Shown here: piece after piece, positions 3,055 to 39,725 of the stretch
How positions within the stretch are numbered: position 1 is the stretch's first letter
Layout: each line of letters opens with the position of its first letter
Source: a virus
Taxonomy: Duplodnaviria > Caudoviricetes
Virus record (IMG/VR): IMGVR_UViG_3300022177_000069
Span: 1-44,149 of that record
Strand: one strand, 5' to 3'
Length of the DNA stretch: 44,149 bases
Notes under the pieces: model-generated
What the model was told of the DNA's origin: nothing
The model's database searches: none
Seen by the model: the letters and a program-made list of their open reading frames with translations, nothing else
Position numbers and translations under genes: made by a program

Positions 3055-4100
3055 TAATAGCTTCCTCCGTCGATTGTGGCATTCTTGATCAAATTATTGA
3101 CAGACACCTTGCCGATCACAGCCCCAGAGGCATCATAAACAGGAACCATGTCAGTCGAAGCATCGATGTCTGCTGCAATGGTGTTCATGCCGTTGATATC
3201 TATCTCAAGCATTACCTTATCTCCTGAAACAGTCTTTTTTAGCCCCCTTGCAGCAGTTACATCGATTTTATCATCCAGATAACCGGCTGCTCCACCGGCA
3301 TTTACTTTGACCTGATATGTGTCACTTACAATACCTGAGAGAAAATTTGTCCGGGTAATTTTGCGTTGCCTTGCCTGGCCGGATTCACTGACATCAATAA
3401 TGATGACAAAGTCATCTGCAGCGATTGCGGTTCCGGTTGCCAGTTCTTCCATGGCAATATCAATTGTGTTACCTGTGATTGATATTCCCAGACCGGCCAC
3501 CATGTTTTTAATTCCTGTAAACGGCTGGATGTCGATATTGGTGGTACCAATAGTAATCGTATCAGAAAATACCCTCCAGATAGTGTCAGCCTGGGTGGTA
3601 CCTTGTGCCACCCCAAACGTAGCACCCATAAGTTCTGAATTGCTATTGGCGTCAGCTGACCTTTGCCAGGCTGAAGCACCGGCAATGTAAATACCGTTCT
3701 GGGTTGCATTGGTTTGCGCAACAACTCCAACACGTGCGCCAGCCGGAACCGAAACACCATCAATGGTCTGTAAACCTGATAAGGTGATATTCCCGGTGGT
3801 AACTACAAGAACATCCGATTTCCAATTCAATCCGGACAACAAATTATCGACTTCTCCCTTTGAATAAACATCAAGGTTGGTCCGTGCTACTGCCTTGTCC
3901 GGTAAATCATTCAGGTTTTGAGCCTTCAGCAGGTAATCACCAAGCTGCGAAGCCTGGCACAAAAGAATTTTAGTGGTTGCCGTCCAGCATATATACAGGT
4001 TCCCCGTATCTACAGCCATTATAAACTCCCCGGGGTTCAGCCCCGTGGTTGGGATGTTGGCATCCACAGCATACCTTTTAATCTTGATCGTATTAGCCAT
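3054..4100 (-). CDS. Phage fibre protein
   Basis: N-terminal IKIKR...L.PGE motif, QNLNDLPDKAVARTNL fibre repeat, TTGNITLSGLQTIDGV...QTNATQNGIY domain common in phage fibres, C-terminal IDGGSY. Confidence 0.75.
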   Translation of the reverse strand: MANTIKIKRYAVDANIPTTGLNPGEFIMAVDTGNLYICWTATTKILLCQASQLGDYLLKAQNLNDLPDKAVARTNLDVYSKGEVDNLLSGLNWKSDVLVVTTGNITLSGLQTIDGVSVPAGARVGVVAQTNATQNGIYIAGASAWQRSADANSNSELMGATFGVAQGTTQADTIWRVFSDTITIGTTNIDIQPFTGIKNMVAGLGISITGNTIDIAMEELATGTAIAADDFVIIIDVSESGQARQRKITRTNFLSGIVSDTYQVKVNAGGAAGYLDDKIDVTAARGLKKTVSGDKVMLEIDINGMNTIAADIDASTDMVPVYDASGAVIGKVSVNNLIKNATIDGGSY

Positions 4101-6801: not shown

Positions 6802-8610
6802 CTAACACTCAATCAGATCCACATCTACAAGGCTGAGATGCATGTGAGACAATGAATAATTGAGTTTCTGAATGTAAAATAACCGGCCTTTCAAAAACAC
6901 TTTATCCCGGATGTCCAGTTTCTTAAGCTCGAGGGGTGAAAGCAGAAAAGACCCTTTCACTTTCATTTTATCCTTTTCAGTCCAGGCTTTCATCATTCCG
7001 TGATATTTCTCAATAAGGCCATCAGGCCCCTCCGGATGGAGAGAAGTATTAAGGTGTTTCACCCCAAAATGATCAGTATGGTGCGACATGATGAGCGGAT
7101 ATTCACTGCCATCATTCTCAAGTGTGCCCGCCATTCCAGCCCAGAACATAATACTAGGTGGTTCTGAAAGCCCCTTTTTCTCAATTACAGGAACCCACCA
7201 GTGTTTCTTCTGGATGATATCTGCATAGGGCGCTTTATCCTGCCACCAATACTGATCAATGGCCATATCTGCCGGCCGGATATCTGAAATGACTTCTGTC
7301 TTGTCCCGGCTGCCATCTGGTTCGCGGGAAGCAAGCGGGCTGTGCCTGATATCAAAAGTTAACCATGGAAGCGAATCCAGGCCCCGGAGTTTCCGGGTGA
7401 TGTTATACTGGCCACCGGTGGATCCATCTGCGTATACAGTCCCGGATTCGCTCCCAGATGAGACTGCAGTGTCAAAAATTTCTTTAACAGAGCTATAGGT
7501 TCTAAGCATATCTTCTTCCGACTTATCAACTCCATCATACCGGAAGATATAGTCCCTCGCTTCTTCATAAGTTATAATCGGATCCCCCGCAAGTTTTCCA
7601 TCCCAGTTTAGCCTTACCTGCCGGTTCATAACATCATTTGAAAACTCCATGCGGTATTTCACGCCAGGATATGCCGTAATGCAAAAGATTTTCATGAGGT
7701 TTTTCAGCAATTCCCTGAAGGGATAAGATTGCAGAAATGACTTCATTTCCCAGGATATGGGGATTAAACCATTCGAAGCGTTATAAGAGTCCACCAGCGG
7801 GAACATTACATCCTGGCGATGCTCCTCCATTGGAGGGATCCAGTACCAGCTATACAAGTTATCAAAACTGAAGTACTTATGGTTCATGCTGATAAGAACC
7901 AGTTTAGCCAGGTCTCCGGAGGCAAAAGGGTTTGACGCCAGGTATGTCCCGAACGCCTGCTCTATAATTTTATGCACAAAAGGGAAAGGCAGGATAGGCG
8001 TGTGGGCTTTCTCCTGATCTGTGATAAAGAAGTTCTTTGTTACCGGGTTAAAGTAATTGATGTATTGTTTAACACTGTTTACCATCCCTCCGGCACTTTC
8101 AGATCCTGACCAGGAAACCTCCCTCAGCCTGACCGGTGCAATAACATAATCTGAGCCCTGGTAGGCCATGCCCCTCATGGATAAGACATATTCTTCCAAT
8201 TCCTGGGACTGGTAGTTCAGGTCTTCAGCATGATACTGGAAAGAACCATACTGCCTTGACCCCAGATCGATTTTATTCAGGTTTACGGCTATTTGCTCAG
8301 GCTCCCGGCTTCCTTTAAATTGTAGTTTAATGGTTGGATCTGTTTCAATAAGAAGTATTTCCCCCCGGGCCAATACTAACCCGCTGAAACGGATCTCGGC
8401 CGGCAAGCGCTTGTGTATTGAAGCTGAAGAAATGCGCACAGGGAAACCCAGCACTTTCAGGTTCCAGGGCGTTGGAGGAACATCAAACGAAAGTGAATAG
8501 GGGGCAGGAACCCTATCATCCATGAACAAAGGGTTTTCCTCAATAAAATTAACTACAATGTCATTTGACAAGTTAAGGGCTAAGCCTTGCCCCACAATTA
8601 CTTCAAGCAT
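6802..8610 (-). CDS. Tail protein (hub/tip) downstream of tape measure
   Basis: 602 aa immediately after the TMP; N-terminal ENPLF...YSLSFDVP.TP.N motif typical of Bacteroidota phage tail proteins. Confidence 0.6.
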   Translation of the reverse strand: MLEVIVGQGLALNLSNDIVVNFIEENPLFMDDRVPAPYSLSFDVPPTPWNLKVLGFPVRISSASIHKRLPAEIRFSGLVLARGEILLIETDPTIKLQFKGSREPEQIAVNLNKIDLGSRQYGSFQYHAEDLNYQSQELEEYVLSMRGMAYQGSDYVIAPVRLREVSWSGSESAGGMVNSVKQYINYFNPVTKNFFITDQEKAHTPILPFPFVHKIIEQAFGTYLASNPFASGDLAKLVLISMNHKYFSFDNLYSWYWIPPMEEHRQDVMFPLVDSYNASNGLIPISWEMKSFLQSYPFRELLKNLMKIFCITAYPGVKYRMEFSNDVMNRQVRLNWDGKLAGDPIITYEEARDYIFRYDGVDKSEEDMLRTYSSVKEIFDTAVSSGSESGTVYADGSTGGQYNITRKLRGLDSLPWLTFDIRHSPLASREPDGSRDKTEVISDIRPADMAIDQYWWQDKAPYADIIQKKHWWVPVIEKKGLSEPPSIMFWAGMAGTLENDGSEYPLIMSHHTDHFGVKHLNTSLHPEGPDGLIEKYHGMMKAWTEKDKMKVKGSFLLSPLELKKLDIRDKVFLKGRLFYIQKLNYSLSHMHLSLVDVDLIEC

Positions 8611-14392: not shown

Positions 14393-16456
14393 TCAAATAT
14401 TGATTTCAACAATTTTACTCGTGTCAATTCCAAGAATGTCAACGACCTTCACCATTATCTTGTATTTCCCAGGTTGTTTATATTCGTAAGAAGTGCTTGT
14501 AAATTCAAGGGACGGGCTTTTCTTGGTCCGGAAACTTTGCCACTCGTTTTCAAACAGATAATTGCCTGTCCATTTTTCTTCAACTTCGCCTTTTTCGTTG
14601 TGGACTTTTATTATTTCTTTTTTGTCTTCGTAGTTGAAATCAATTGCCCAGTAATCAATCCAATCGTACCAGTTTTCGGTAAGTACAGTTCTTGTAATAA
14701 TACCGTTTTTGTCTTTAACCACTTTTACTATTTGTCCGTCCTCAATTACTACTTTGCTTCCAGCTCGCATTGATTGTTGAATATCTTCAATATCGTCTTG
14801 TGTGTAATGAGTTACAAAGTCGGTTAATTCAACTGTTACTTTTTTGCCATTGATTATTTCCTTTGTGTTTAAATAAGCAACATCGTAAAATTTGGCTTGC
14901 CCTTTTTCTACGGCACGTTTATCGAACACATCTTTGGGAATGTATTTTAATGTGATTGCAACACCTTTCTCTTTGAGTTCCTGAATAAATTGTGGTGTTA
15001 AACCCATTTCAAATTCAAAACCTAATACATCGACTTGAGTGTAAAGTTTTTGGCGACACTCTTCAAAAATATCCAACAAACGACTCTGTGTTACGGGAAC
15101 ATCTAAAGGACCAACATTGATAAATCTGCCTGCTTTACTTCCGTGCAGGGTTTTATGTCCTTCAATCCGTTTGGCTTTGTATGCTTCCAGAATTAAATCT
15201 ACATACAAATCTTCTTTGGCTTTTAGTTTTCCGTTGGTGAGGTCGTCCATAAAAAACTGGCGTTCGTACTTGCCAAGATTTAGTATTTCAAAAGCACGGA
15301 AATCTTTACCGCTTTCCTGCAATTCCCTTTGTATGCCAATCATTCGCTTACGTGTGGTGTGAACAGAAAACCTGCCCAAATCGGTAGTTATCCATTTTCT
15401 GCCCAATTTTTCGGCAACTGCTGCAGTTGTACCACTACCACAGAAAAAATCAGCAATTAAATCGCCTTCGTTGCTACTGGCTTTAATGATTCGTTCTAAT
15501 AGGGCTTCAGGTTTTTGAGTAGGATAGCCAAGTCTTTCATTACCAACTGGATTAATCATAGAAATTTCCCACATATCAGGCATTGGGACTCCTTTTGAAA
15601 CTTCATCAGTTAAAATAGAACGTCTAACACCATCTTCTCCAATTACACTGACCCATGCTTTACCATCACCAGAAGATTTATCTGATTTAGGAATGTAAAG
15701 CTGGTTAAAAATATGATTTCCTTTTGATTTAGAATAAAGGAAAATAGTGTCCCAATTTTTCGCAAATGCTTTACCAGCAATATTCCACCTTCGATAATAC
15801 CAAGCAACTTGATTGATAAAATTATCAACTCCAAAAATATCATCAAGTAAGAACTTTATGTAAGCATTAACTCTTCCATCAATATGCACATAGATACTTC
15901 CATCTTCCGATAATAAACTGTGCATTAATTTTAGGCGTTCGTACATCATTGTCAAGTAGGAAGAAATCCCCTTCCCCCATGTATCACGATAAGCAATTTC
16001 TTCAATAATGCTTTGTTTCTTTTCGGCTTTTTCTCCACCAATTTCGATTTCAAAACCAAAGTCGGCCCCAACGGCAAAAGGTGGGTCAATGTATATGAGT
16101 TTTAGTCCGCCTTCTTTTTCAATTTCTTCACGTATTGGTCCGTTTGCCAAAGAAGAAAGGATGAGTTTGTTATCACCCCAAATGAGTTTGTTTGTCCAGC
16201 CTTTTAATTGCCGTCCACGCATATCGAACATTTCAAACATATCGCCAGCTTGTTTGGCTTCTTTGCGAGGTTCGTCTATGTGTTCAATACTATGGAAAGG
16301 CAACGCAATGTTTGTTACATCTTCTTTTCTGCCATTCCAAAACAGGAAAACATCTTCTTCGTCTGAGAAAAGTTTATAAATATCTTCTTTGGGCAGTTTT
16401 TGTCCTGCTTTTATGATTTCAATAATTCGGTTTTTATCGTTGTCGTTCAAATTCAT
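14393..16456 (-). CDS. mod: Type III-like R-M DNA methyltransferase (Mod), N6A/N4C beta class, with long C-terminal extension
   Basis: LIYIDPPF (motif IV) precedes YPTQKP and DFFCGSGTT (motif I); translationally coupled to the Res gene. Confidence 0.88.
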   Translation of the reverse strand: MNLNDNDKNRIIEIIKAGQKLPKEDIYKLFSDEEDVFLFWNGRKEDVTNIALPFHSIEHIDEPRKEAKQAGDMFEMFDMRGRQLKGWTNKLIWGDNKLILSSLANGPIREEIEKEGGLKLIYIDPPFAVGADFGFEIEIGGEKAEKKQSIIEEIAYRDTWGKGISSYLTMMYERLKLMHSLLSEDGSIYVHIDGRVNAYIKFLLDDIFGVDNFINQVAWYYRRWNIAGKAFAKNWDTIFLYSKSKGNHIFNQLYIPKSDKSSGDGKAWVSVIGEDGVRRSILTDEVSKGVPMPDMWEISMINPVGNERLGYPTQKPEALLERIIKASSNEGDLIADFFCGSGTTAAVAEKLGRKWITTDLGRFSVHTTRKRMIGIQRELQESGKDFRAFEILNLGKYERQFFMDDLTNGKLKAKEDLYVDLILEAYKAKRIEGHKTLHGSKAGRFINVGPLDVPVTQSRLLDIFEECRQKLYTQVDVLGFEFEMGLTPQFIQELKEKGVAITLKYIPKDVFDKRAVEKGQAKFYDVAYLNTKEIINGKKVTVELTDFVTHYTQDDIEDIQQSMRAGSKVVIEDGQIVKVVKDKNGIITRTVLTENWYDWIDYWAIDFNYEDKKEIIKVHNEKGEVEEKWTGNYLFENEWQSFRTKKSPSLEFTSTSYEYKQPGKYKIMVKVVDILGIDTSKIVEINI

Positions 16457-19131
16457 TATGATTCTTTATTTTCGGTTACGGTAAAAATTTTAACTACTTC
16501 GGAAAACGATTTAAAATCGTTTTTAATATCGTCCCATTTTTCCTGATTAATGTAAACAGGCGAATAGGTGTAATCCTTTTGTGCTGTGTTTATATCTTTA
16601 CACCACACAAAGAGCCGTTGAATTTTGCGAATATCGTCTAAATCTTCACGCCCTTTAGTTTCTACAATATAAAAGGTTTTGTCGCTGGTTTTTACAAAAA
16701 AGTCGGGGTAATATTCTCGTATGTTTCCGTCTTGTGCCTGATATTCAATTTTAAAATTGATACCACCTTCGCCCATTGTATTTTTTGCATACGAAACTAC
16801 ATCGTCAAAACGACTTTCGAGAAATGAAGCAAATTCTAATTCAAAAGGATTGTCGCCAATAATTTTATTGAACACCGATTTTTTAGGCACAATAAAAGGT
16901 TGGTTTTCTGCAATTTTAGGTTTCGATAATTTCAGGGAAATGTAGTTTTTAACTTCGGCTGTTCCTTTGTCAGTTACAGTTAATTCGTCAATTGCTTTTT
17001 TGAATGTTGATTTTAGTATTTCTTTTGGCTGAATTTCAGAGAGATTACGCAATGTTTGAGCATCGCTTAGTTCTACTTCTTTTGTAAAGAGTTTGTATTT
17101 TATAAAACTTTCAACCTTTGGATAAAGAATATCAAAACCACTTACCAAACGGCTGTCTTTTAATATTGTAGCTGTGAAAAAGCCAATTACATTACGATAA
17201 TCGGGAACGGTATCTTTAAATATAGTTTTGTGTGAAAAATCACCTTCAATATCGTTGAAAATGATTTCTTTCAATTCATCATTGCTGAATTTTTTAAGTG
17301 GTGATTTTTCGTTGGTAAACTTGCTAACGTCTATTAATTCAAGATTTTTAAACTCTCTATAAATACGTGGACTCATTTGTGGAATTGGAATATCTAATTT
17401 GTCCAAATCTTTATTCGGGTTTTCCTTGTCAACCTCCACAATAACAGGCGATTTCCCTTTTGTGCCTTTACCCATTGGGCTGTATTGAAATTCAACCCCT
17501 TCGGTTTTTAAACTTTCAACAAACTCCAAAAACGCTGGAGTACCAACAACAACCAAATTTTCTGGCGTATCTAACGAAAACATTTTTCGCAAGCCTCTGC
17601 CTATGGTTTGTTCGGGTAATATTTTAGAATCGGCACCAAACGGACGTAAACCAACAACAGTTGAAACATTTCTTACATCCCAGCCTTCACGAAGCATTAA
17701 AACTGAAACAACCGCTTTGTATGGCGAATCATCTTTATCAATGTCATCAGCCGCTTTTCTTAATTTCTCTAACTCTTCTTTTGCCTTCTTGGAAGTTGCT
17801 GTTTCGCTTATTTCACCCGAATTATTAGTATGAATAGTAAGTACTGAATTTTTCATTTTAGGATAAGTGCTTTCCAAAAAAGCGGCTGCCTGGTCGGCTT
17901 CCTTAGTGCTCATTGTCATTATGAAAAGAATGGGTATTTTTTGGCTTTTCAATTCTTCGTATTGTTGCTCCCATTCCAAGTATCCCAAATGAATGTAATC
18001 ACGGTAACGTTCAACAAAATCGGAAGAATCTTTCTCCTGAATTTTTTGTCGTGATGCTTCATCAGGTAATACAGGCGACTTAACAACATTTTGTTTTATA
18101 GCTTCGACCAAAGGATAATCGCAAATAGTCTGAACAAAAATAGCTCCGTTGTTATGTTTAGGTGTTGCTGAATAATCGGCCTGTAAACTTAAACCATTGC
18201 CGTTTTTAAGCTTTAGTTTATTGCTAATATCCTCAATGCTTTTAAACCAAGCCAATGAACTATCGTGAATGTGGTGGGCTTCATCGTTCAAGACAATCAA
18301 GTCTTTTATTTTATCGGTACGCAAAACCTTACCTAAGTCTAACCCTTTTGAGATGTCGGCATCGGGTTTTGGTTTCACGCCTAAGAAAGTATCTTCAAAA
18401 CTTTGTTCGGGTTCTTCGTTCAAAAATACTCTGTGTATGTTGGTTAGAAAAATATTTCCCGATTCGGTTATTGGTTTAAGCTCGTCCTGAATGTGTAAAG
18501 TTAGTTGAAAATCGTTTTTCCAGTCTTTGTCGGCATATCCATTTTCTGGGATAAAAGGCTCGTCAAAAAACATTTTTAAGCCGTCAAAGTCTTTACGTAA
18601 ACGATTCAAAACAATGATATTCGGCGCAATTACCAAGAAATTTTTTGAGAGAGAACTGTCAGTTTCATAGAGGTTATGAAAGTAGCTCCAAACCAAAGTC
18701 AAACCCATTACTTTTGTTTTACCTGCACCAGTTGCCATCTTCACAACATATCGTGTCCAACTTTCATCAAACATTCCAGTACTCACACGCCCAGAAGAAT
18801 CAAAACGCATCAGTTCGTATTTGTCCTTTGCTTTTGCAACTTCGTACAAATAGACTATTGATTCTATGGCTTCACGCTGCGAAAAGAAAAAACAAAATTT
18901 AGATTGTCCGATTAAGTGTTCTTGATTAAACCAAAAGTTCATCAATAGTTTAGAGGTCTCAGAAGCACCTGAATAATTATCTTCTCTCCATTTTGCGACT
19001 GCAAGCCGGATTTTATATACTAAAGGAGGGAGAAGTTTTTCATAAGCATTCTGGAACAACTCCATCTGAATCTGTGTCGGAGCCCAACGCTCATTTGGTG
19101 CTAATATTTCAAAGGGACTAGAGAATTTCAT
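16456..19131 (-). CDS. res: Type III-like restriction endonuclease (Res): SF2 helicase plus PD-(D/E)xK nuclease
   Basis: MATGAGKT Walker A, DEAHH, SATP, LREGWDV, EQTIGRGLR, and C-terminal YYPDF...VETKG. Confidence 0.9.
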   Translation of the reverse strand: MKFSSPFEILAPNERWAPTQIQMELFQNAYEKLLPPLVYKIRLAVAKWREDNYSGASETSKLLMNFWFNQEHLIGQSKFCFFFSQREAIESIVYLYEVAKAKDKYELMRFDSSGRVSTGMFDESWTRYVVKMATGAGKTKVMGLTLVWSYFHNLYETDSSLSKNFLVIAPNIIVLNRLRKDFDGLKMFFDEPFIPENGYADKDWKNDFQLTLHIQDELKPITESGNIFLTNIHRVFLNEEPEQSFEDTFLGVKPKPDADISKGLDLGKVLRTDKIKDLIVLNDEAHHIHDSSLAWFKSIEDISNKLKLKNGNGLSLQADYSATPKHNNGAIFVQTICDYPLVEAIKQNVVKSPVLPDEASRQKIQEKDSSDFVERYRDYIHLGYLEWEQQYEELKSQKIPILFIMTMSTKEADQAAAFLESTYPKMKNSVLTIHTNNSGEISETATSKKAKEELEKLRKAADDIDKDDSPYKAVVSVLMLREGWDVRNVSTVVGLRPFGADSKILPEQTIGRGLRKMFSLDTPENLVVVGTPAFLEFVESLKTEGVEFQYSPMGKGTKGKSPVIVEVDKENPNKDLDKLDIPIPQMSPRIYREFKNLELIDVSKFTNEKSPLKKFSNDELKEIIFNDIEGDFSHKTIFKDTVPDYRNVIGFFTATILKDSRLVSGFDILYPKVESFIKYKLFTKEVELSDAQTLRNLSEIQPKEILKSTFKKAIDELTVTDKGTAEVKNYISLKLSKPKIAENQPFIVPKKSVFNKIIGDNPFELEFASFLESRFDDVVSYAKNTMGEGGINFKIEYQAQDGNIREYYPDFFVKTSDKTFYIVETKGREDLDDIRKIQRLFVWCKDINTAQKDYTYSPVYINQEKWDDIKNDFKSFSEVVKIFTVTENKES

Positions 19132-23887: not shown

Positions 23888-24349
23888 CTAGATCATTCCA
23901 TCATCTGCAAAACTATAGTAGTTCCCTTCGGGGGTCAGAATTATATGATCCAGTAAATTAATATCAAGGAACCCAGCGCCCTCTTTGATCTTCTTGGTTA
24001 GCTTTATATCTGCCTCGCTTGGCCGGGTGTTCCCGCTCGGGTGGTTGTGGCATAGTATAATACTGGCGGCATGCGACAACAAAGCGGACTGCAGTATCAT
24101 TTTCGGGTCGGCCACAGTTCCGGCCTGCCCTCCTTCGCTTACGTTCATTATTCCGATAACACGGTTAGCCCGGTTTAACAGCATAACTTTAAAGCTTTCC
24201 CGGTAGGCAATTTGCGACATATCCCAAAAGTAAAAAAAGGTTTCAAAGCTTTGTTTGCTGCTTGTCATTATTGGCCTGTTCTTAGTATCCGGTTTCGAGG
24301 GTACATAAGAGAGTTTAACTTCTGCTATTTGATTAAAAAGAGTTTGCAT
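23888..24349 (-). CDS. RadC-like JAB/MPN domain protein (stand-alone)
   Basis: E...LLNRAN, HNHPSG..PS.AD and LLDHII motifs. Confidence 0.9.
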   Translation of the reverse strand: MQTLFNQIAEVKLSYVPSKPDTKNRPIMTSSKQSFETFFYFWDMSQIAYRESFKVMLLNRANRVIGIMNVSEGGQAGTVADPKMILQSALLSHAASIILCHNHPSGNTRPSEADIKLTKKIKEGAGFLDINLLDHIILTPEGNYYSFADDGMI

Positions 24350-24368
24350 AGTTCACAAGTTTTAAGAG

Positions 24369-24866
24369 TTAAAAAATATCATCCGTTACAGTTTCCGCGT
24401 GGGCGTGCTCAGTTTTCATTACCTGACCTTCGGGTTTATGATCCTTTTGTTTTTCCTCAGCTTTTCTTACCTGCTTTTCAGAAAAAAGGTAACAAAGCGG
24501 AAAAAAAAGGTTTTCCATGTCCTCAGTAGATATTCCCTTTTCCTTTTCCTCATCCCCTTCACGGGTTCCCACCGGCTGCCCCCACACGATAAAGGCTTTT
24601 TCACCTTTTTTTACCGTTGCTCCTTCTGCTTTCCATTGCATGAAGGTTTTAAACTCCTTTGCCCCGTCGGTCTGATATATGTAATTAAGCAACATAAAAT
24701 TAATGGTTCTGCTTGCCCAATAAAAAGCCTTCCCAGATTGGCCGGCTTCTTCGGCTTCTTTAATCAGCCTTGCCCGCAAGGCTTCGGCATCTCTGCTTAA
24801 GTTGCTTAAAATAATACGCTTTTGCCTCGTGGGGTTCTCTTCTTTTGTATCTTTGTTGCTGTTCAT
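24369..24866 (-). CDS. ArdC-like N-terminal ssDNA-binding domain protein
   Basis: FKTFMQWKAEGATVKKGEKA motif, ending in YLFSEKQV; no C-terminal HExxH protease domain. Confidence 0.7.
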   Translation of the reverse strand: MNSNKDTKEENPTRQKRIILSNLSRDAEALRARLIKEAEEAGQSGKAFYWASRTINFMLLNYIYQTDGAKEFKTFMQWKAEGATVKKGEKAFIVWGQPVGTREGDEEKEKGISTEDMENLFFPLCYLFSEKQVRKAEEKQKDHKPEGQVMKTEHAHAETVTDDIF

Positions 24867-34665: not shown

Positions 34666-34744
34666 ATTACAAGCGATTACAAGCAATTGCAAACGCTTAA
34701 ACCTTAAAAGTTTATGCGTTTATTTACAAGTTAGCGGTAATTAT
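34665..34744 (+). other. attI-like site
   Basis: Direct repeats GATTACAAGC x2 (34665-34684) upstream of TTTACAAG|TTAGCGGTAATTAT (G at 34730), which is complementary to the end of cassette 1. Confidence 0.5.
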
Positions 34745-34770
34745 AACAGACACGATAGAAACAATTAAAT

Positions 34771-35619
34771 ATGAGAGAAAAACCATTTGTATTTATAGGT
34801 TCATCAGCAGAAGGACTTGAAGCAGCGAAAGGAATTCAAGCCAATCTTGACTACACTTGTGAATGTCAAATATGGTCACAAGGATTATTCGGACTATCAG
34901 GAGGAACACTTGAAACATTGGTAAAATCGTTAGACAACTTTGACTTTGCTATTCTTGTTCTAACTGAAGACGACATTACTATAAGCAGAGACCAAGAACA
35001 AGCATCGCCAAGGGACAATGTAATTTTTGAATTAGGGTTGTTTATAGGTGGTCTTGGCATTGAAAGAACTTTTATGGTTGTAGACAGACAAGCAAAATTG
35101 AAATTGCCTTCTGACTTAGGAGGAATTACTCCTGCGACTTTTGAGCCACCGAGAAAAGGAACAATTCAATCAGCACTTGGTAGTTCTTGTTTGGCGATTG
35201 AACAAGCAATAAAAAAACTTGGTGCAAGAAATGAAGTAGGTGTAACTGCACACTGGTGGACAAAGTGTGCGGAAGACGGAGTTACAGATACACCTAATTA
35301 TTATATGACCGTGTTTAATAGGACAAATAAGGATTTGCCCTGGTTAAACGTTCACGTTTTCCCATCAAATACTTTTAAACTAACTCCGATAACACCGCAA
35401 CGGGACAGAATTATGGCTGGTCAATACGCTATGTATGAATTCAAAATGTATGACGACACAGACACCGACCAATTAACGAAATGGGCTGAAAGGTTTTCAA
35501 ATGAGAAAGAGGAAGAACTATCAATTCGCATTTTTAAGGAGAACACAGCTGACGAACCTGTTTTGATTAGTTACGAACTTGGGACAAAACTTCATAAACG
35601 AATTTTGAAATACAAATGA
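34771..35619 (+). CDS. Cassette 1: TIR-like nucleotide-binding domain (Cap12/Pycsar-type) with unknown C-terminal domain
   Basis: VFIGSS.E, FDFAIL...DD, PRDNVIFELGLF.G.LG and LPSDLGG motifs. Confidence 0.85.
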   Translation: MREKPFVFIGSSAEGLEAAKGIQANLDYTCECQIWSQGLFGLSGGTLETLVKSLDNFDFAILVLTEDDITISRDQEQASPRDNVIFELGLFIGGLGIERTFMVVDRQAKLKLPSDLGGITPATFEPPRKGTIQSALGSSCLAIEQAIKKLGARNEVGVTAHWWTKCAEDGVTDTPNYYMTVFNRTNKDLPWLNVHVFPSNTFKLTPITPQRDRIMAGQYAMYEFKMYDDTDTDQLTKWAERFSNEKEEELSIRIFKENTADEPVLISYELGTKLHKRILKYK

Positions 35620-35621
35620 GA

Positions 35622-35768
35622 ATAACTACCGCTAACAGCCGTTTTGCAAAAGCGGGGATTTCGTGCTTCTAAGACAGTGAAGTGCTAAATTAAAGCTTTG
35701 TGCATCTAATGAAGTTTAGTGCTGAAAATCCCCGCCTTCGCAAAGCGGCAAAACGTTGGCGGCAAGCG
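35622..35768 (+). other. attC-like recombination site (imperfect palindrome, about 132 bp core to core)
   Basis: CGCTAAC (35630-35636) ... GTTGGCG (35755-35761) enclosing 24-nt arms GCCGTTTTGCAAAAGCGGGGATTT / AAATCCCCGCCTTCGCAAAGCGGC (21/24 complementary). Confidence 0.75.
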
Positions 35769-35828
35769 TAAGTGCGACTACATCAATATTTCAATATCGA
35801 AAAAAATCTATACCTTAACAGCAAAAAA

Positions 35829-38159
35829 ATGGCAAAAGCATTTCTTTCACACAGCAGCAAAGACAAGGGACTAGTTGAGAAAATAGCTACTCAACTGGGC
35901 AAAAACAATTGTCACTATGACAAATTCACTTTTGAGGCAGGTAATCTAACTTTAGACGAGATATTTAAAGGTTTAGAAGATACAGATGTTTTCGTCTTAT
36001 TTATTTCTCAACCAGCACTTGAGTCTGAATGGATTGAGAAAGAAATAACTCATGCTAGAGTACTTTCGACAGACAAGCGAATAGATAGAATTTTTCCAAT
36101 AATAATTGATAAGTCAATCCATCATTCGGACAAACGAATACCCGAATGGATAAGAAAACCTTATAATCTAAGAGTTTTTGACAATGAAGTAATTATTTTA
36201 AAAAAAATAAAACAGTTACTTCGGGAAAGCAACTTTAAGCAGTTTTCTCATCTAAGAGATATAAATGACTTATTTGTTGGGAGAAATGATATTATGCAGG
36301 AATTCGAAAGGCGAATCATAAATATTGAAAATACAAAGCCGACCTGCATCATTGCTTCAAGTTTTTTCGAAGGCATGGGAAGAAGAACTTTTTTAAGAAA
36401 TGGACTTATAAAAACCAGAGTAATTGACAAATGGTATGAACCTGTACCTGTTTCAATTGGATCAAAGGAAAGTATTGAAGACTTCCTATATAAGCTCAAT
36501 TTTATTGAAATAATCCCTGAAGTATTTAAAAAGAATTTTGCAACTGATGACCTTGAAACAAAAATAGAGCTTGGAAGAAAATTCTTAAAGAAATATTCTG
36601 AAACAAAAGAATTACTTTTTATTATAGATGAAGGTAGTATTGTACTTCCCAATCATACCTTGGTTGGTTGGTTTCGTGAAATAATATCTACACCAGATCT
36701 TTTAAACCAAGTTTCAATTTGTTTAATATCTAAATTTAAACCTTATGGACCCCATATTAAGAAATTGGGGAATGTTCTCAATTTTCAAATTGACGAACTT
36801 TCCCAAGAGGACACTCAGACATTGTTTATCCAGTATCTTAATATTATCAAACAACAACTACGTCCGGAAGATATTAAATTCTTCTTTCAATATTTACATG
36901 GTATTCCAGGCCAAATAATTTATGCTGCAAATTTAATAGAAAGCATGGGGCTTGTGGACTCAAAAGCCTTTGTGAAAGACATAGAGGAATTTGATGAGTT
37001 AAGAGCCCTGTCAATCTTAGAATTTTTAAAAGACGACCCTTTATGTACACAAATGCTGATTGCTTTATCAAAATTTGAAATAATAAGTCACGATCTGGTG
37101 TTTAAGATATTTGGAGAGACAGATGAAGTTTATAAAGCAATCCAGAAGTTGTTTGATTTAACATTGTTCTTCTCAGTTAGCTCAACCCATGACTATCTAA
37201 AATTAAACAGTTCAATTTCTGATTATATAAATCGTTCTAGATTAGAACTTAACCAATCTATTAATAACCGTATAAAGGAAATTGCAAGAGAAGCAATTCA
37301 GAAGCCACTTGAGTTGACCGAAACTTCTGACTATTCTGAATTTCTTTTCACTTTGGAAAATATGATTAAAGAAAATATTGCGATTCCAACAAAGTACTTA
37401 ATTCCATCATTCATTTTAAAATCCATTATTAAAGAATATAATGACCGGCAGTATAAAAAAGTAATTCAACTTGCAACAAAATTACTTGAAAATGAAAATA
37501 AATTTGATTTCCAAATTATTCGAGAGACAAGAAATTGGCTGTGTCTAGCTTATTGCAGAACTCAAAATGAAAAGTTTTTTGAATTGATTAATTTTTTCAA
37601 TAATCAAGATAACGAATCGCAAATTGACTTTCATTTTCTATTTGGCTTCTATTACAGAAATGGAGATAAAATGGATGAAGCGGAAGATCATTTTTTAGAA
37701 GTTTTAAAACTTGATGAAAATCATTCAAGAACAAAACGCGAACTTGTAAATGTTTATCTGAGGAAAGGTGAGTACATGAAAGCACTCAATTGGTCAAGAG
37801 ATAATTATAAGAAGTTTAAAACTAATATTCTCCATATACAAGCATATTTCACTTGTCTAATAAAGAAAGCTGATAAAAGTGAATTTGACTTAGATACAAT
37901 CAAAGAACTTCTACAGAATGCTTCAAAAAGTTTAGATAAAAAAGCTAATAATGTAATGAGGGAAATGCAGGCAGAGTATGACTTTTACATTAAAAACAAT
38001 GCAAGTAGTGCAATTACTACCTTGAATGAATCTTTGAGAATGAATCAACATAACTACTTCGCATTTAGAGCACTTTTTGAAATATACAAAAAGAAACACA
38101 TGGCCTTTGAATTGGGCGAACTTGTATCAAAGTATCCAGACCTATATGAGTTCGAATAA
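35829..38159 (+). CDS. Cassette 2: TIR + degenerate P-loop NTPase + TPR protein (776 aa from ATG 35829)
   Basis: AFLSHSSKDK...SEWIEKEI TIR; LFVGRN, EGMGRRTF, LFIIDE and GIPG STAND-like motifs; TPR-like C-terminus (GFYYR..D..DEA..HFL.VL.LD.NH). Confidence 0.8.
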   Translation: MAKAFLSHSSKDKGLVEKIATQLGKNNCHYDKFTFEAGNLTLDEIFKGLEDTDVFVLFISQPALESEWIEKEITHARVLSTDKRIDRIFPIIIDKSIHHSDKRIPEWIRKPYNLRVFDNEVIILKKIKQLLRESNFKQFSHLRDINDLFVGRNDIMQEFERRIINIENTKPTCIIASSFFEGMGRRTFLRNGLIKTRVIDKWYEPVPVSIGSKESIEDFLYKLNFIEIIPEVFKKNFATDDLETKIELGRKFLKKYSETKELLFIIDEGSIVLPNHTLVGWFREIISTPDLLNQVSICLISKFKPYGPHIKKLGNVLNFQIDELSQEDTQTLFIQYLNIIKQQLRPEDIKFFFQYLHGIPGQIIYAANLIESMGLVDSKAFVKDIEEFDELRALSILEFLKDDPLCTQMLIALSKFEIISHDLVFKIFGETDEVYKAIQKLFDLTLFFSVSSTHDYLKLNSSISDYINRSRLELNQSINNRIKEIAREAIQKPLELTETSDYSEFLFTLENMIKENIAIPTKYLIPSFILKSIIKEYNDRQYKKVIQLATKLLENENKFDFQIIRETRNWLCLAYCRTQNEKFFELINFFNNQDNESQIDFHFLFGFYYRNGDKMDEAEDHFLEVLKLDENHSRTKRELVNVYLRKGEYMKALNWSRDNYKKFKTNILHIQAYFTCLIKKADKSEFDLDTIKELLQNASKSLDKKANNVMREMQAEYDFYIKNNASSAITTLNESLRMNQHNYFAFRALFEIYKKKHMAFELGELVSKYPDLYEFE

Positions 38160-38175
38160 TAATCGCCAGCCGCCA

Positions 38176-38260
38176 ATCGAGTAGACGGCCGGTGAGCCAT
38201 AAGCCCACCGGTGCGCCTCTCACACCACCGTACGTACGGGTCACGTATACGGCGGTTCAA
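38176..38260 (-). mobile_element. Group IIC intron 3' remnant (domains V-VI only)
   Basis: Minus strand GAACCGCCGTATACGTGACCCGTACGTACGGTGGTGTGAGAGG (DV, CGC triad), then DVI stem ending GTCT-A-CTCGAT with bulged A; no RT ORF. Confidence 0.88.
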
Positions 38261-38337
38261 ACACCATCATCGAATTTGGTGCATCTGCAATAATTACAAG
38301 TTCCGTAACTCATAATTCTTATTCCGCTTGGAGATTA

Positions 38338-38535
38338 TTAATCATGAATAGTTCTAATATCCTGCAGCAATTCTTTAAACCGCCTGTCCCGTGCCGCCTT
38401 AGTTTCAAATTTCTCCAAAGTTCTCCATTCATAGTTACCGTTCTCTTTTACTTTGATTCTCGGGGATGGCTGATCATCAGTCCTGATGATCCGGAACCCG
38501 GCAGCCATTACTTTCATTTGTGAGTTTGTGTCCAT
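38338..38535 (-). CDS. Small hypothetical phage protein (start at ATG 38535)
   Basis: 65 aa MDTNSQ..., last gene of the replication operon. Confidence 0.6.
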   Translation of the reverse strand: MDTNSQMKVMAAGFRIIRTDDQPSPRIKVKENGNYEWRTLEKFETKAARDRRFKELLQDIRTIHD

Positions 38536-38539
38536 AGCT

Positions 38540-38785
38540 TTATTGGTTGGTTGATTTAACATATACCCGGCCATCCTCAATCCATGGCCGGAATTTTTCC
38601 ACTACCCCATGTTTCGAAACATGGTGCTCGAATTCATTGGAATGGTAGGTATGAACCAGAAAATTTATTCCCTCCGGTTCCACTCCCCTCTCAGTTCTGA
38701 AATCATCGATTCCGGCCACCCGCATTCCTTGAGGAAGGGTTTTGTATATCCAGCGGCCAAATTCTCCCAGATATGGATCTTTCAT
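38540..38785 (-). CDS. Small hypothetical phage protein
   Basis: 81 aa, coupled to the upstream gene. Confidence 0.55.
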   Translation of the reverse strand: MKDPYLGEFGRWIYKTLPQGMRVAGIDDFRTERGVEPEGINFLVHTYHSNEFEHHVSKHGVVEKFRPWIEDGRVYVKSTNQ

Positions 38786-39216
38786 AGCATGATTACATTA
38801 TATCCAAGATGGCTGGCCACCAGGAACTGGGTTTGCGCATCGCGGCTCCTGCCCCACTCCGGGAACAGCGCAATGGATGTACAGTTTTTAATAAGGGCTG
38901 TAAGGCTGATCCGCATTGCCGGCTGCCAGCCGGAACCTTCAGGAATAAGTGAAAGCGGATTAAGCGGTTTATGTCCGTATGCTTTCAGGAGGTTTTCAGC
39001 GTCTGAATTTCGCTGCATCTGTAGCTTCCTGTCAGCAGAAAACAGATCTCCGGCAATAAACACCGAGTTTTCTCCCGCGGCCGGGATAGATACATTATCA
39101 GTGGTAACAAGATCCAGCAGTTCAAGGAGAGGATCCACTACCTCAAGGATTGCTTCAGCAGGCAAGGATCCCTTCCTGATCTGCCTGAGCCTTAACATTA
39201 AATAATCAGCATTCAT
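38782..39216 (-). CDS. DUF4406-like protein
   Basis: VFIAG, LNP, W...MR..L..L..C..I...PEW..S..A pattern. Confidence 0.65.
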   Translation of the reverse strand: MNADYLMLRLRQIRKGSLPAEAILEVVDPLLELLDLVTTDNVSIPAAGENSVFIAGDLFSADRKLQMQRNSDAENLLKAYGHKPLNPLSLIPEGSGWQPAMRISLTALIKNCTSIALFPEWGRSRDAQTQFLVASHLGYNVIML

Positions 39217-39725
39217 CAGTCTATGGTTAATTGAAGTGAGTAATTATGTTTCCTGGCCAGGCGTTCAATTCTGTCCTTCAGGATACCTTCCAGTACCTGC
39301 TGTTTTGAAGCCGGGATATAGATAGTTTTCTCCGGACCGGAGACTTTGATTCCTGCCTGGGTAATAAGGTAGTGCAGATTGTACCGCTGTTTGGTCCGGC
39401 ATGGAGTATACTCCTGATAATACTGCTTACACTTGCTTACCTTTTCCCCGAAAAGCGGATCTGTAGCCACAAGTCCGCTGATGGTTTTGTGTGCATTGAT
39501 GCTGGTTGCATGGGCTTTCTTATTAAAGTACCTGGCAATAGCCGGGTGTGAAAGCCTGAGCAATTCCTTCTGCAGGTACATGGCCGTAAGCCTTGCATCA
39601 GTTATGGTCCTCAGGGTAGTGTTCCGGTGCAGCTCACGCAGTGTGATTCCGAAAACATCGCACACTATCCGGTCCAACCGGCGCTGCTCCCTTCTAGAAT
39701 GGCGGTTTGCTGTTGTCCTCTTCAT
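39216..39725 (-). CDS. DnaA C-terminal (domain IV)-like HTH protein
   Basis: IVCDVFGIT..EL...T..R.I..AR..AMYL...LS...IA..F....H.T.I.A pattern. Confidence 0.7.
   Translation of the reverse strand: MKRTTANRHSRREQRRLDRIVCDVFGITLRELHRNTTLRTITDARLTAMYLQKELLRLSHPAIARYFNKKAHATSINAHKTISGLVATDPLFGEKVSKCKQYYQEYTPCRTKQRYNLHYLITQAGIKVSGPEKTIYIPASKQQVLEGILKDRIERLARKHNYSLQLTID

Follow-up and report, generated by a model that had tools for sequence, protein, structure and literature searches.

Truncated 3' end of a class C group II intron closing a defence cassette array in a probable prophage

The phage, its cassettes and the attI-like site

The window, by which we mean the whole stretch of 44,149 nt analysed here, holds a 44-kb temperate phage with an integrase (1-1197), a tape measure protein, an endolysin and a head protease. 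Since 12,025 nt of the window are identical to part of a larger, 281-kb metagenome contig (L218, which is probably the source assembly), the sequence is likely to be that of a prophage; its closest genome-borne sibling comes from a Bacteroidales bacterium (L125). The phage is mosaic, in that its left arm matches those of two further siblings, L128 and L225, at 96.5% and its right arm at 87-88%. A low-GC insert (34708-38277) carries two plus-strand genes, one for a CAP12/Pycsar-type TIR protein and one for a TIR-NLR-like protein (PADLOC TIR-NLR, E 1.2e-126; Pfam TIR_2), which together with the sites that flank them make up the array described below (Table 1). Elsewhere in the phage, a second defence hotspot in the tail region (14393-19131) holds a low-GC type III restriction-modification pair, and the structural module at 23888-24866 includes RadC-like and ArdC-like anti-restriction genes.

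Table 1. Coordinates of features at the end of the cassette array (positions in the window)
Feature	Position	Strand	Remarks
attI-like site	34708..34732	+	four phage copies: window, L125, L128, L219
Cassette 1, CAP12/Pycsar-type TIR gene	34731..35755	+	ORF 34771-35619, 282 aa; Pfam/PADLOC
Intact attC-like hairpin, cassettes 1/2	35622..35763	+	crossover G|TT placed at 35755/35756 by inference
Cassette 2, TIR-NLR-like defence gene	35756..38175	+	ORF 35772-38159, 795 aa
Inverse core (R''-like) of cassette 2	38163..38175	+	cut at A|AC by intron; rest of hairpin absent
3' stub of class C group II intron, 102 nt	38176..38277	-	last RT codons, domain V and domain VI
Domain VI, bulged A, AU 3' end	38176..38222	-	fold z -4.63, 0/200 shuffles
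Domain V, CGC triad	38224..38257	-	Rfam alignment, fold
End of RT ORF, E-I-R-stop	38267..38277	-	stop codon 38269-38267
Truncation junction, intron stub/phage right arm	38277..38278	.	bridged by X3 contig
First right-arm phage gene, phrog_34157	38338..38580	-	convergent on array

Each of the two genes sits in a cassette of its own, both cassettes point the same way, and in each the inverse core is complementary to the 5' core of the same cassette, at 14/15 positions for cassette 1. The intact hairpin between them folds better on the bottom strand (z -4.39) than on the top strand (z -2.58), and has two 24-nt arms of equal length with a mismatch and wobbles, and with no bulge or extrahelical base. 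Canonical attC sites possess an L box with extrahelical bases. At the other end of the array, four sibling phage copies of the attI-like site agree as far as the G|TT (~34730) and then run into four different first cassettes. In addition, a prophage in the Bacteroidales genome G001 appears to consist of the L128 array preceded by two or more additional cassettes, if two G001 contigs are taken as joined, and its first cassette is interrupted by the same intron as that of the window. Because one of its contigs (C57) starts inside an attC-like hairpin, the intron of this prophage is probably longer than the stub. We rejected L125 as a case of another cassette on the same stub; the G001 prophage has an L128-type right arm.

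In these respects the hairpins behave like attC sites and the cassettes turn over at the attI-like site, which supports the proposal of a first-pass annotation of this DNA that the Bacteroidota hairpins are attC-equivalent. The same annotation had suggested that the stub may mark how the array arrived. Here the siblings point the other way: in L128 and the G001 prophage an attI-like site and cassettes are present but not this stub, the stub is absent from the siblings examined in IMG/VR or G001 (L128, L129, L130 and L225), and no intron remnant was found at the L128 array end or at five other sibling loci. Since the siblings share the attI-like site and hold different cassettes and no stub, the intron does not explain how the array arrived. 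In two of these stub-free siblings, L128 (reverse ~8500-8510) and L225 (reverse ~1275-1285), the inverse core of the last cassette forms the exact end of the array (after ...AA), and neither hairpin nor intron follows; recombination between the R'' side and a secondary site may account for such ends.

The insertion of IntI1 (I2 region) is absent from the window integrase, from the candidate recombinase of G001 (TIGR02249, 211 bits against a cut-off of 265) and from the integrase of the related phage L212. This L212 protein, an integron-integrase-like recombinase of 286 aa (17004-17864), is encoded at the same locus, beside a small gene bounded by attC-like cores (16620-16988). Cassette turnover at the attI-like site is seen in siblings (L125, L128, L219, L240) with no IntI in the phage, and this site is probably of more interest than the stub itself. 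A search for a chromosomal attI-like motif found none, the matches in 2/39 genomes being one prophage and one site within coding sequence. In three siblings without the attI-like site (L129, L130, L308) this locus is occupied by low-GC defence-like genes of other kinds, which means that the hotspot is older than the cassette system or persists after it.

The intron stub and its two junctions

A cmscan search of the whole window returned a single match, to the Rfam family Intron_gpII (RF00029; 38176-38257, minus strand), covering the full model (1-77) at 39.0 bits (E 2.7e-4), which is 1 bit below the gathering score of 40. The stub RNA folds as domain V (DV) plus domain VI (DVI) (z -4.19, 0/200 shuffles), with an unpaired A in DVI seven bases from the intron 3' end. 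This match and fold bear out the first-pass identification of the element as an antisense group IIC DV-DVI remnant. The class C features present in the stub are DV, DVI with its bulged A, an AY 3' end and the CGC triad of DV, which we take to be a class C label.

The remnant is longer than the ~85 nt reported at first. Matches to three relatives (L127, L299 and L300) carry the intron DNA on to 38277, giving 102 nt that include the RT stop codon, and the encoded RT C-terminus is the same as that in the L127 ORF fragment and in the full-length RTs P0001 and P0002. It had also been proposed that removal of 38176-38260 rejoins the core to ACACC; because the intron runs on to 38277 and ACACC (38261-38265) lies within it, by the same matches, this part of the proposal is refuted. 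The stub lacks the 5' GUGYG end, domains DI-DIV and a complete RT ORF, whereas 5' ends and RTs exist in relatives. Judged by its sequence it cannot splice, since DI-DIV and the 5' end are absent. Past 38277 we found no intron 5' end and no remainder of an attC-like hairpin, the DNA from 38278 onward being that of the phage arm, and a consensus scan at the stub found no terminator-like site and no promoter excess. An 18-codon ORF that spans the junction of stub and arm was given no weight.

On the cassette side, the intron 3' end adjoins 38169-38175, seven bases that, read on the opposite strand, are identical to 35757-35763, which follow GT in cassette 2's own 5' core. This 7-mer is expected 3.26 times per 88 kb (both strands), or with a probability of ~4e-5 at one pre-set position. 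The complementarity supports the first-pass claim that the intron splits the second core at A|AC, and the placement is antisense, on the bottom strand inside the R'' core. Of the target, the window keeps the IBS3 T and has lost exon 1, with the hairpin and IBS1. In another run, a contig (X6; window 38100-38190) follows the cassette 2 end with 4 other letters in 91 and then, from the same base on, passes into another variant of DVI, which shows cassette 2 to be intron-tagged elsewhere too.

We then asked how secure the junction with the right arm is. An assembly chimera at a collapsed intron repeat could create such an adjacency, and two runs that are possibly the source sample (X1 and X2) show how: their left and right arms meet only through a 103-nt stretch that is a high-depth repeat contig (1796 against ~200-209 in X1, 1312 against ~142-147 in X2, where depth is not copy number), the intron branch departing from the window path right after 38277 and the right arm leaving at 38278. 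Furthermore, none of the pieces listed reaches across 38175-38278 with flanking sequence on either side, and the G001 contigs break at the intron repeat. However, a collapse would leave an intron 5' end and an attC and not a join in mid-intron, the arm-side contigs start at 38248 at left-arm-like depth, and a contig from another study (X3) bridges the junction over 38184-39288, with 94 nt of intron and 28 other letters plus 2 gaps in 1105 nt. The flanking synteny is that of L128-L130, and the identity to L218 points the same way, with the reservation about its origin made above. We therefore regard a chimera as very improbable. The phage arms that carry the junction differ by ~2.5-3%, and the stub on them is nearly unmutated.

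Several contigs were weighed conservatively. The arm contigs of X1, X2, X4 and X5 start at 38248, overlap the stub by only 30 letters and were not counted as bridges, those of X4 and X5 being one letter short of the bridge criterion. The X9 contig matches 38278-38367, has other DNA beyond 38278, and is read as a putative arm allele without the stub. Holes at cassette 2 (X3, 35912-38122) and at its end (X3, X4, X9) belong to filtered contigs and carry no evidential weight, cover in X5 is low and partial, and the X5 joint at 35758-38174 is unreliable. That cassette 2, the stub and the arm belong to one molecule is taken from the original assembly and from the synteny with L128-L130. When viral contigs were scanned for sequence patterns of the stub, the junction and the 60-nt spacer, each gave 0 matches; the 40-nt match that crosses the junction in genome G012 belongs to an HsdS-like gene (E 6.5e-4) and was taken as chance.

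Insertion sites and reverse transcriptases of relatives

A DV-DVI pattern scan found at least 123 loci, the first 80 of which were analysed, with their titles and flanking sequence. Short flanks excluded six, and the 75 rows left comprise 23 Bacteroidota, assigned by record title, and 52 others, among which we placed a Rikenellaceae row (L050) whose RT groups elsewhere. Among the matches listed, the exon ends in YA| in 23/23 Bacteroidota-lineage rows as against 20/52 others, a long ORF or cassette stop lies at most 45 nt away in 15/23 as against 11/52, and the own core matches at 9/10 positions or better in 13/23 as against 4/52; row by row, the own-core permutation p is below 0.05 in only 4/23 Bacteroidota rows. 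Empty sites rebuilt from these matches read A|AC in 10/11 Bacteroidota cases and in 0/7 others; the eleventh has a mis-called end and reads A|AC once corrected, and the seven others follow short hairpins. All ten correctly rebuilt Bacteroidota sites end in GT/T and five of the ten carry TTGT/T, again among the matches listed, where a fold of z <= -2.5 is reached by only 3/9 foldable sites with rough site ends. The IBS1-side bases vary among the relatives (TTGT, GTGT, CTGT, TGGT). Taken together, the relatives prefer the core over ordinary terminators, in agreement with the first-pass expectation.

The genome G001 provides the most direct comparison for the stub. Five different cassette ends in it, one of them in the sibling prophage, are each followed by a near-identical intron at the same position of the core, and the five contig ends match the stub at 99% over 94-98 nt, with a sole difference at 38243. 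In the genus of G001, 20/39 genomes match the stub, some of them via terminator-type introns, and cassette-core insertion by the lineage is seen across Flavobacteriia, Cytophagia and Bacteroidales. After hand correction of L054, L303 (first copy) and L015, about 12/35 rows are 5'-truncated with room beyond, and the stubs of L299 and L300 also terminate arrays. The searches brought up no full-length DNA copy of this exact sub-lineage that keeps both flanks: L127 has a gap of Ns and the proteins P0001-P0028 come without genomic context. A search for the RT in G001 found none, its repeats being probably unassembled, and a back-translated RT-tail scan of genome contigs gave, among the matches listed, one locus, which is unrelated.

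The scan also brought up other forms of the intron. ORF-deleted mini-introns of ~410-760 nt with both ends intact sit at A|AC in L058, L059, L060, L283, L303 (second copy) and L304, L058 holding two copies of equal length in consecutive cassettes, suggesting that such elements may be mobilised in trans. Very short stubs of ~14-50 nt follow chromosomal cassette ends in L127 (~2451-2465), L221 (~3486-3530) and L231. On a Chondrinema plasmid (L248, 4468-5628), a gene annotated as a site-specific integrase is immediately followed by a cassette that an intron interrupts.

With the RT tail of L127, which belongs to the stub's sub-lineage, as query, we obtained 28 proteins from 36 candidates, the best of which (P0001, 424 aa, PF00078 and PF08388) is 88% identical to that tail. 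The RTs, known from the relatives only, group with class C-type RTs and have no endonuclease domain. Our tree comprises 30 rows (4 of the sub-lineage, 9 Bacteroidota, 3 integron-borne plasmid introns, a Vibrio sister and 13 other RTs), with five rows of an earlier set omitted for run time or a long branch. The IIC-attC clade is represented by 4 rows only and there is no outgroup of another intron class, so the class C assignment rests partly on the RNA features. H34 and H36, candidates for attC introns, turned out to be introns of the IncC backbone. In the tree, the sub-lineage and the other Bacteroidota RTs are sister groups (100/100), the attC intron group forms a separate 100/100 clade, and a forced union of the two is rejected (p-AU 0.017, or 0.020 under a simpler model) in topology tests that were run after the first tree had been seen; one root-side arrangement differed between the first and final trees. 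Membership of the IIC-attC clade, as entertained at first, thus does not hold. IIC-attC introns are defined as monophyletic in PMC3001079, which places a Microscilla and a Bacteroides intron-encoded protein in ordinary class C. On these comparisons, the intron is one that would work like an IIC-attC intron and is not a member of that clade, which points to a second, presumably convergent, origin of cassette-site homing.

The likeness is close. Like the IIC-attC introns S.ma.I2, E.c.I7 and Kl.pn.I1 as described in PMC3001079, the stub has a class C tail, lies antisense to the cassettes and adjoins A|AC (bottom-strand ...GT/T), and three integron-borne plasmid introns (after blaIMP-4, arr-2 and dfrA14) have the same layout; TTGT/T is given as the consensus for IIC-attC introns (PMC7923331). 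The differences are that the RTs of the stub lineage fall in another clade, that its IBS1 side is variable, that its hairpin is ~135-140 nt without a clear extrahelical base, that no IntI with the integron-specific insertion was found in the setting, and that the window copy is only a 102-nt stub, in which the DI/DII part that holds the outward promoter Pout of IIC-attC introns is deleted. Ordinary class C introns of Bacillota and Proteobacteria (L017, L048, L052 and others) share the DV-DVI motif, an RT of ~420-480 aa and an adjacent DNA hairpin, but their hairpins are short and T-tailed, they follow no A|AC rule (0/7) and they have no link to cassettes.

These data bear on whether the stub could be left over from the formation of a cassette, or the delivery of the array, by an intron, or could be a true IIC-attC intron from Proteobacteria. 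The shared strand and core position, the TTGT/T in half of the correctly rebuilt sites listed and the different DVI variant after the cassette 2 end in X6 would fit such an origin. It nevertheless seems to us improbable, given the separate RT clade, the inverse core of cassette 2 that matches its own 5' core as in a mature cassette, and the sibling prophages, where attI-like site and cassettes occur but the stub does not. Moreover, in the model of Leon and Roy for intron-mediated cassette formation, as presented in PMC7923331, the intermediate keeps the attC that is lost here.

Origin of the stub and its role in cassette exchange

The comparisons above show the stub to be the terminal 102 nt of a Bacteroidota class C intron, placed antisense at A|AC of the last cassette's core; we read it as likely a dead scar. 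Going by class C biology, intron RNA would have entered the bottom strand, in its single-stranded form, by reverse splicing at the base of the hairpin. The cDNA would start on the cassette side, with DVI, DV and the RT tail copied first, so that an aborted copy or a deletion would leave the order cassette, core, 3' stub and unrelated DNA. The 5' part and the rest of the hairpin would then have been lost through aborted retrohoming or reverse transcription or through a later deletion, two routes that sequence alone cannot separate. Fragmentation is described as commonplace among bacterial group II introns (PMC2504315, PMC7923331), and the 5'-truncated array introns UHB.F1, H.ha.F1 and H.ha.F2 described in PMC7923331 are likewise reduced to their DV-DVI 3' end and a portion of the intron-encoded protein. 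Those are IIC-attC or IIB introns in chromosomal or metagenomic arrays, whereas the window stub is shorter and sits at an array end in a prophage. As the R' arm is missing, the cassette recombinase would be unable to cut out cassette 2, and new cassettes would still be able to enter at the attI-like site. Fixation of cassette 2 against integrase excision is thus plausible, though homologous exchange through the stub would bypass it.

A nearly unmutated stub on arms that differ by ~2.5-3% is less well explained by a purely neutral scar. The stub could instead be a working homology linker, at which recombination with intron copies after other cassettes swaps the terminal cassette and needs no intact attC. 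Such a role would fit the 99% identical introns after other cassettes in G001, including its sibling prophage, the high-depth repeat contig in X1 and X2, the recurrence of the junction on the diverged X3 right arm and the mosaic arms of the phage relative to L128 and L225. Yet no contig joins a different cassette via the stub to the right arm, the four siblings named above lack it, and 102 nt is short for RecA-type exchange; we consider this role unlikely. A wider scheme built on it is, we think, an equally long shot: the phage would have its own attI-like dock and draw defence cassettes from a non-IntI host system, the stub would be the right-hand linker through which the terminal cassette is traded with intron-tagged cassettes in the host or a sibling prophage, and the lineage's homing, independent of IIC-attC, would now serve as a second route of cassette exchange.

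Phage-borne cassette arrays are already known. The phage-borne integron parts and CALINs in the text of Qi et al. 2023 (PMC9892861) resemble the present case in having an attC-type array in a temperate phage, no cassette integrase of their own and defence-type cargo; the window differs in its Bacteroidota-like host, its non-canonical sites and the attI-like turnover among siblings. A term search found the word intron 0 times in the main text of that paper. Complete integrons found by IntegronFinder are only rare in Bacteroidota, as reported in PMC9024848, and a literature search by title and start of abstract, mostly among freely accessible papers, found none describing a cassette-site class C lineage of Bacteroidota.

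Returning to the preferred reading of a scar, the stub is in itself an ordinary broken retroelement, and its value is that of a marker. That its lineage finds the same core base across three Bacteroidota groups suggests that the Bacteroidota hairpins form in single-stranded DNA as attC sites do. Finally, the sibling prophages document, in a few natural steps, how cassettes were gained at a single attI-like site, and this opens the Bacteroidota cassette recombinase to direct testing.
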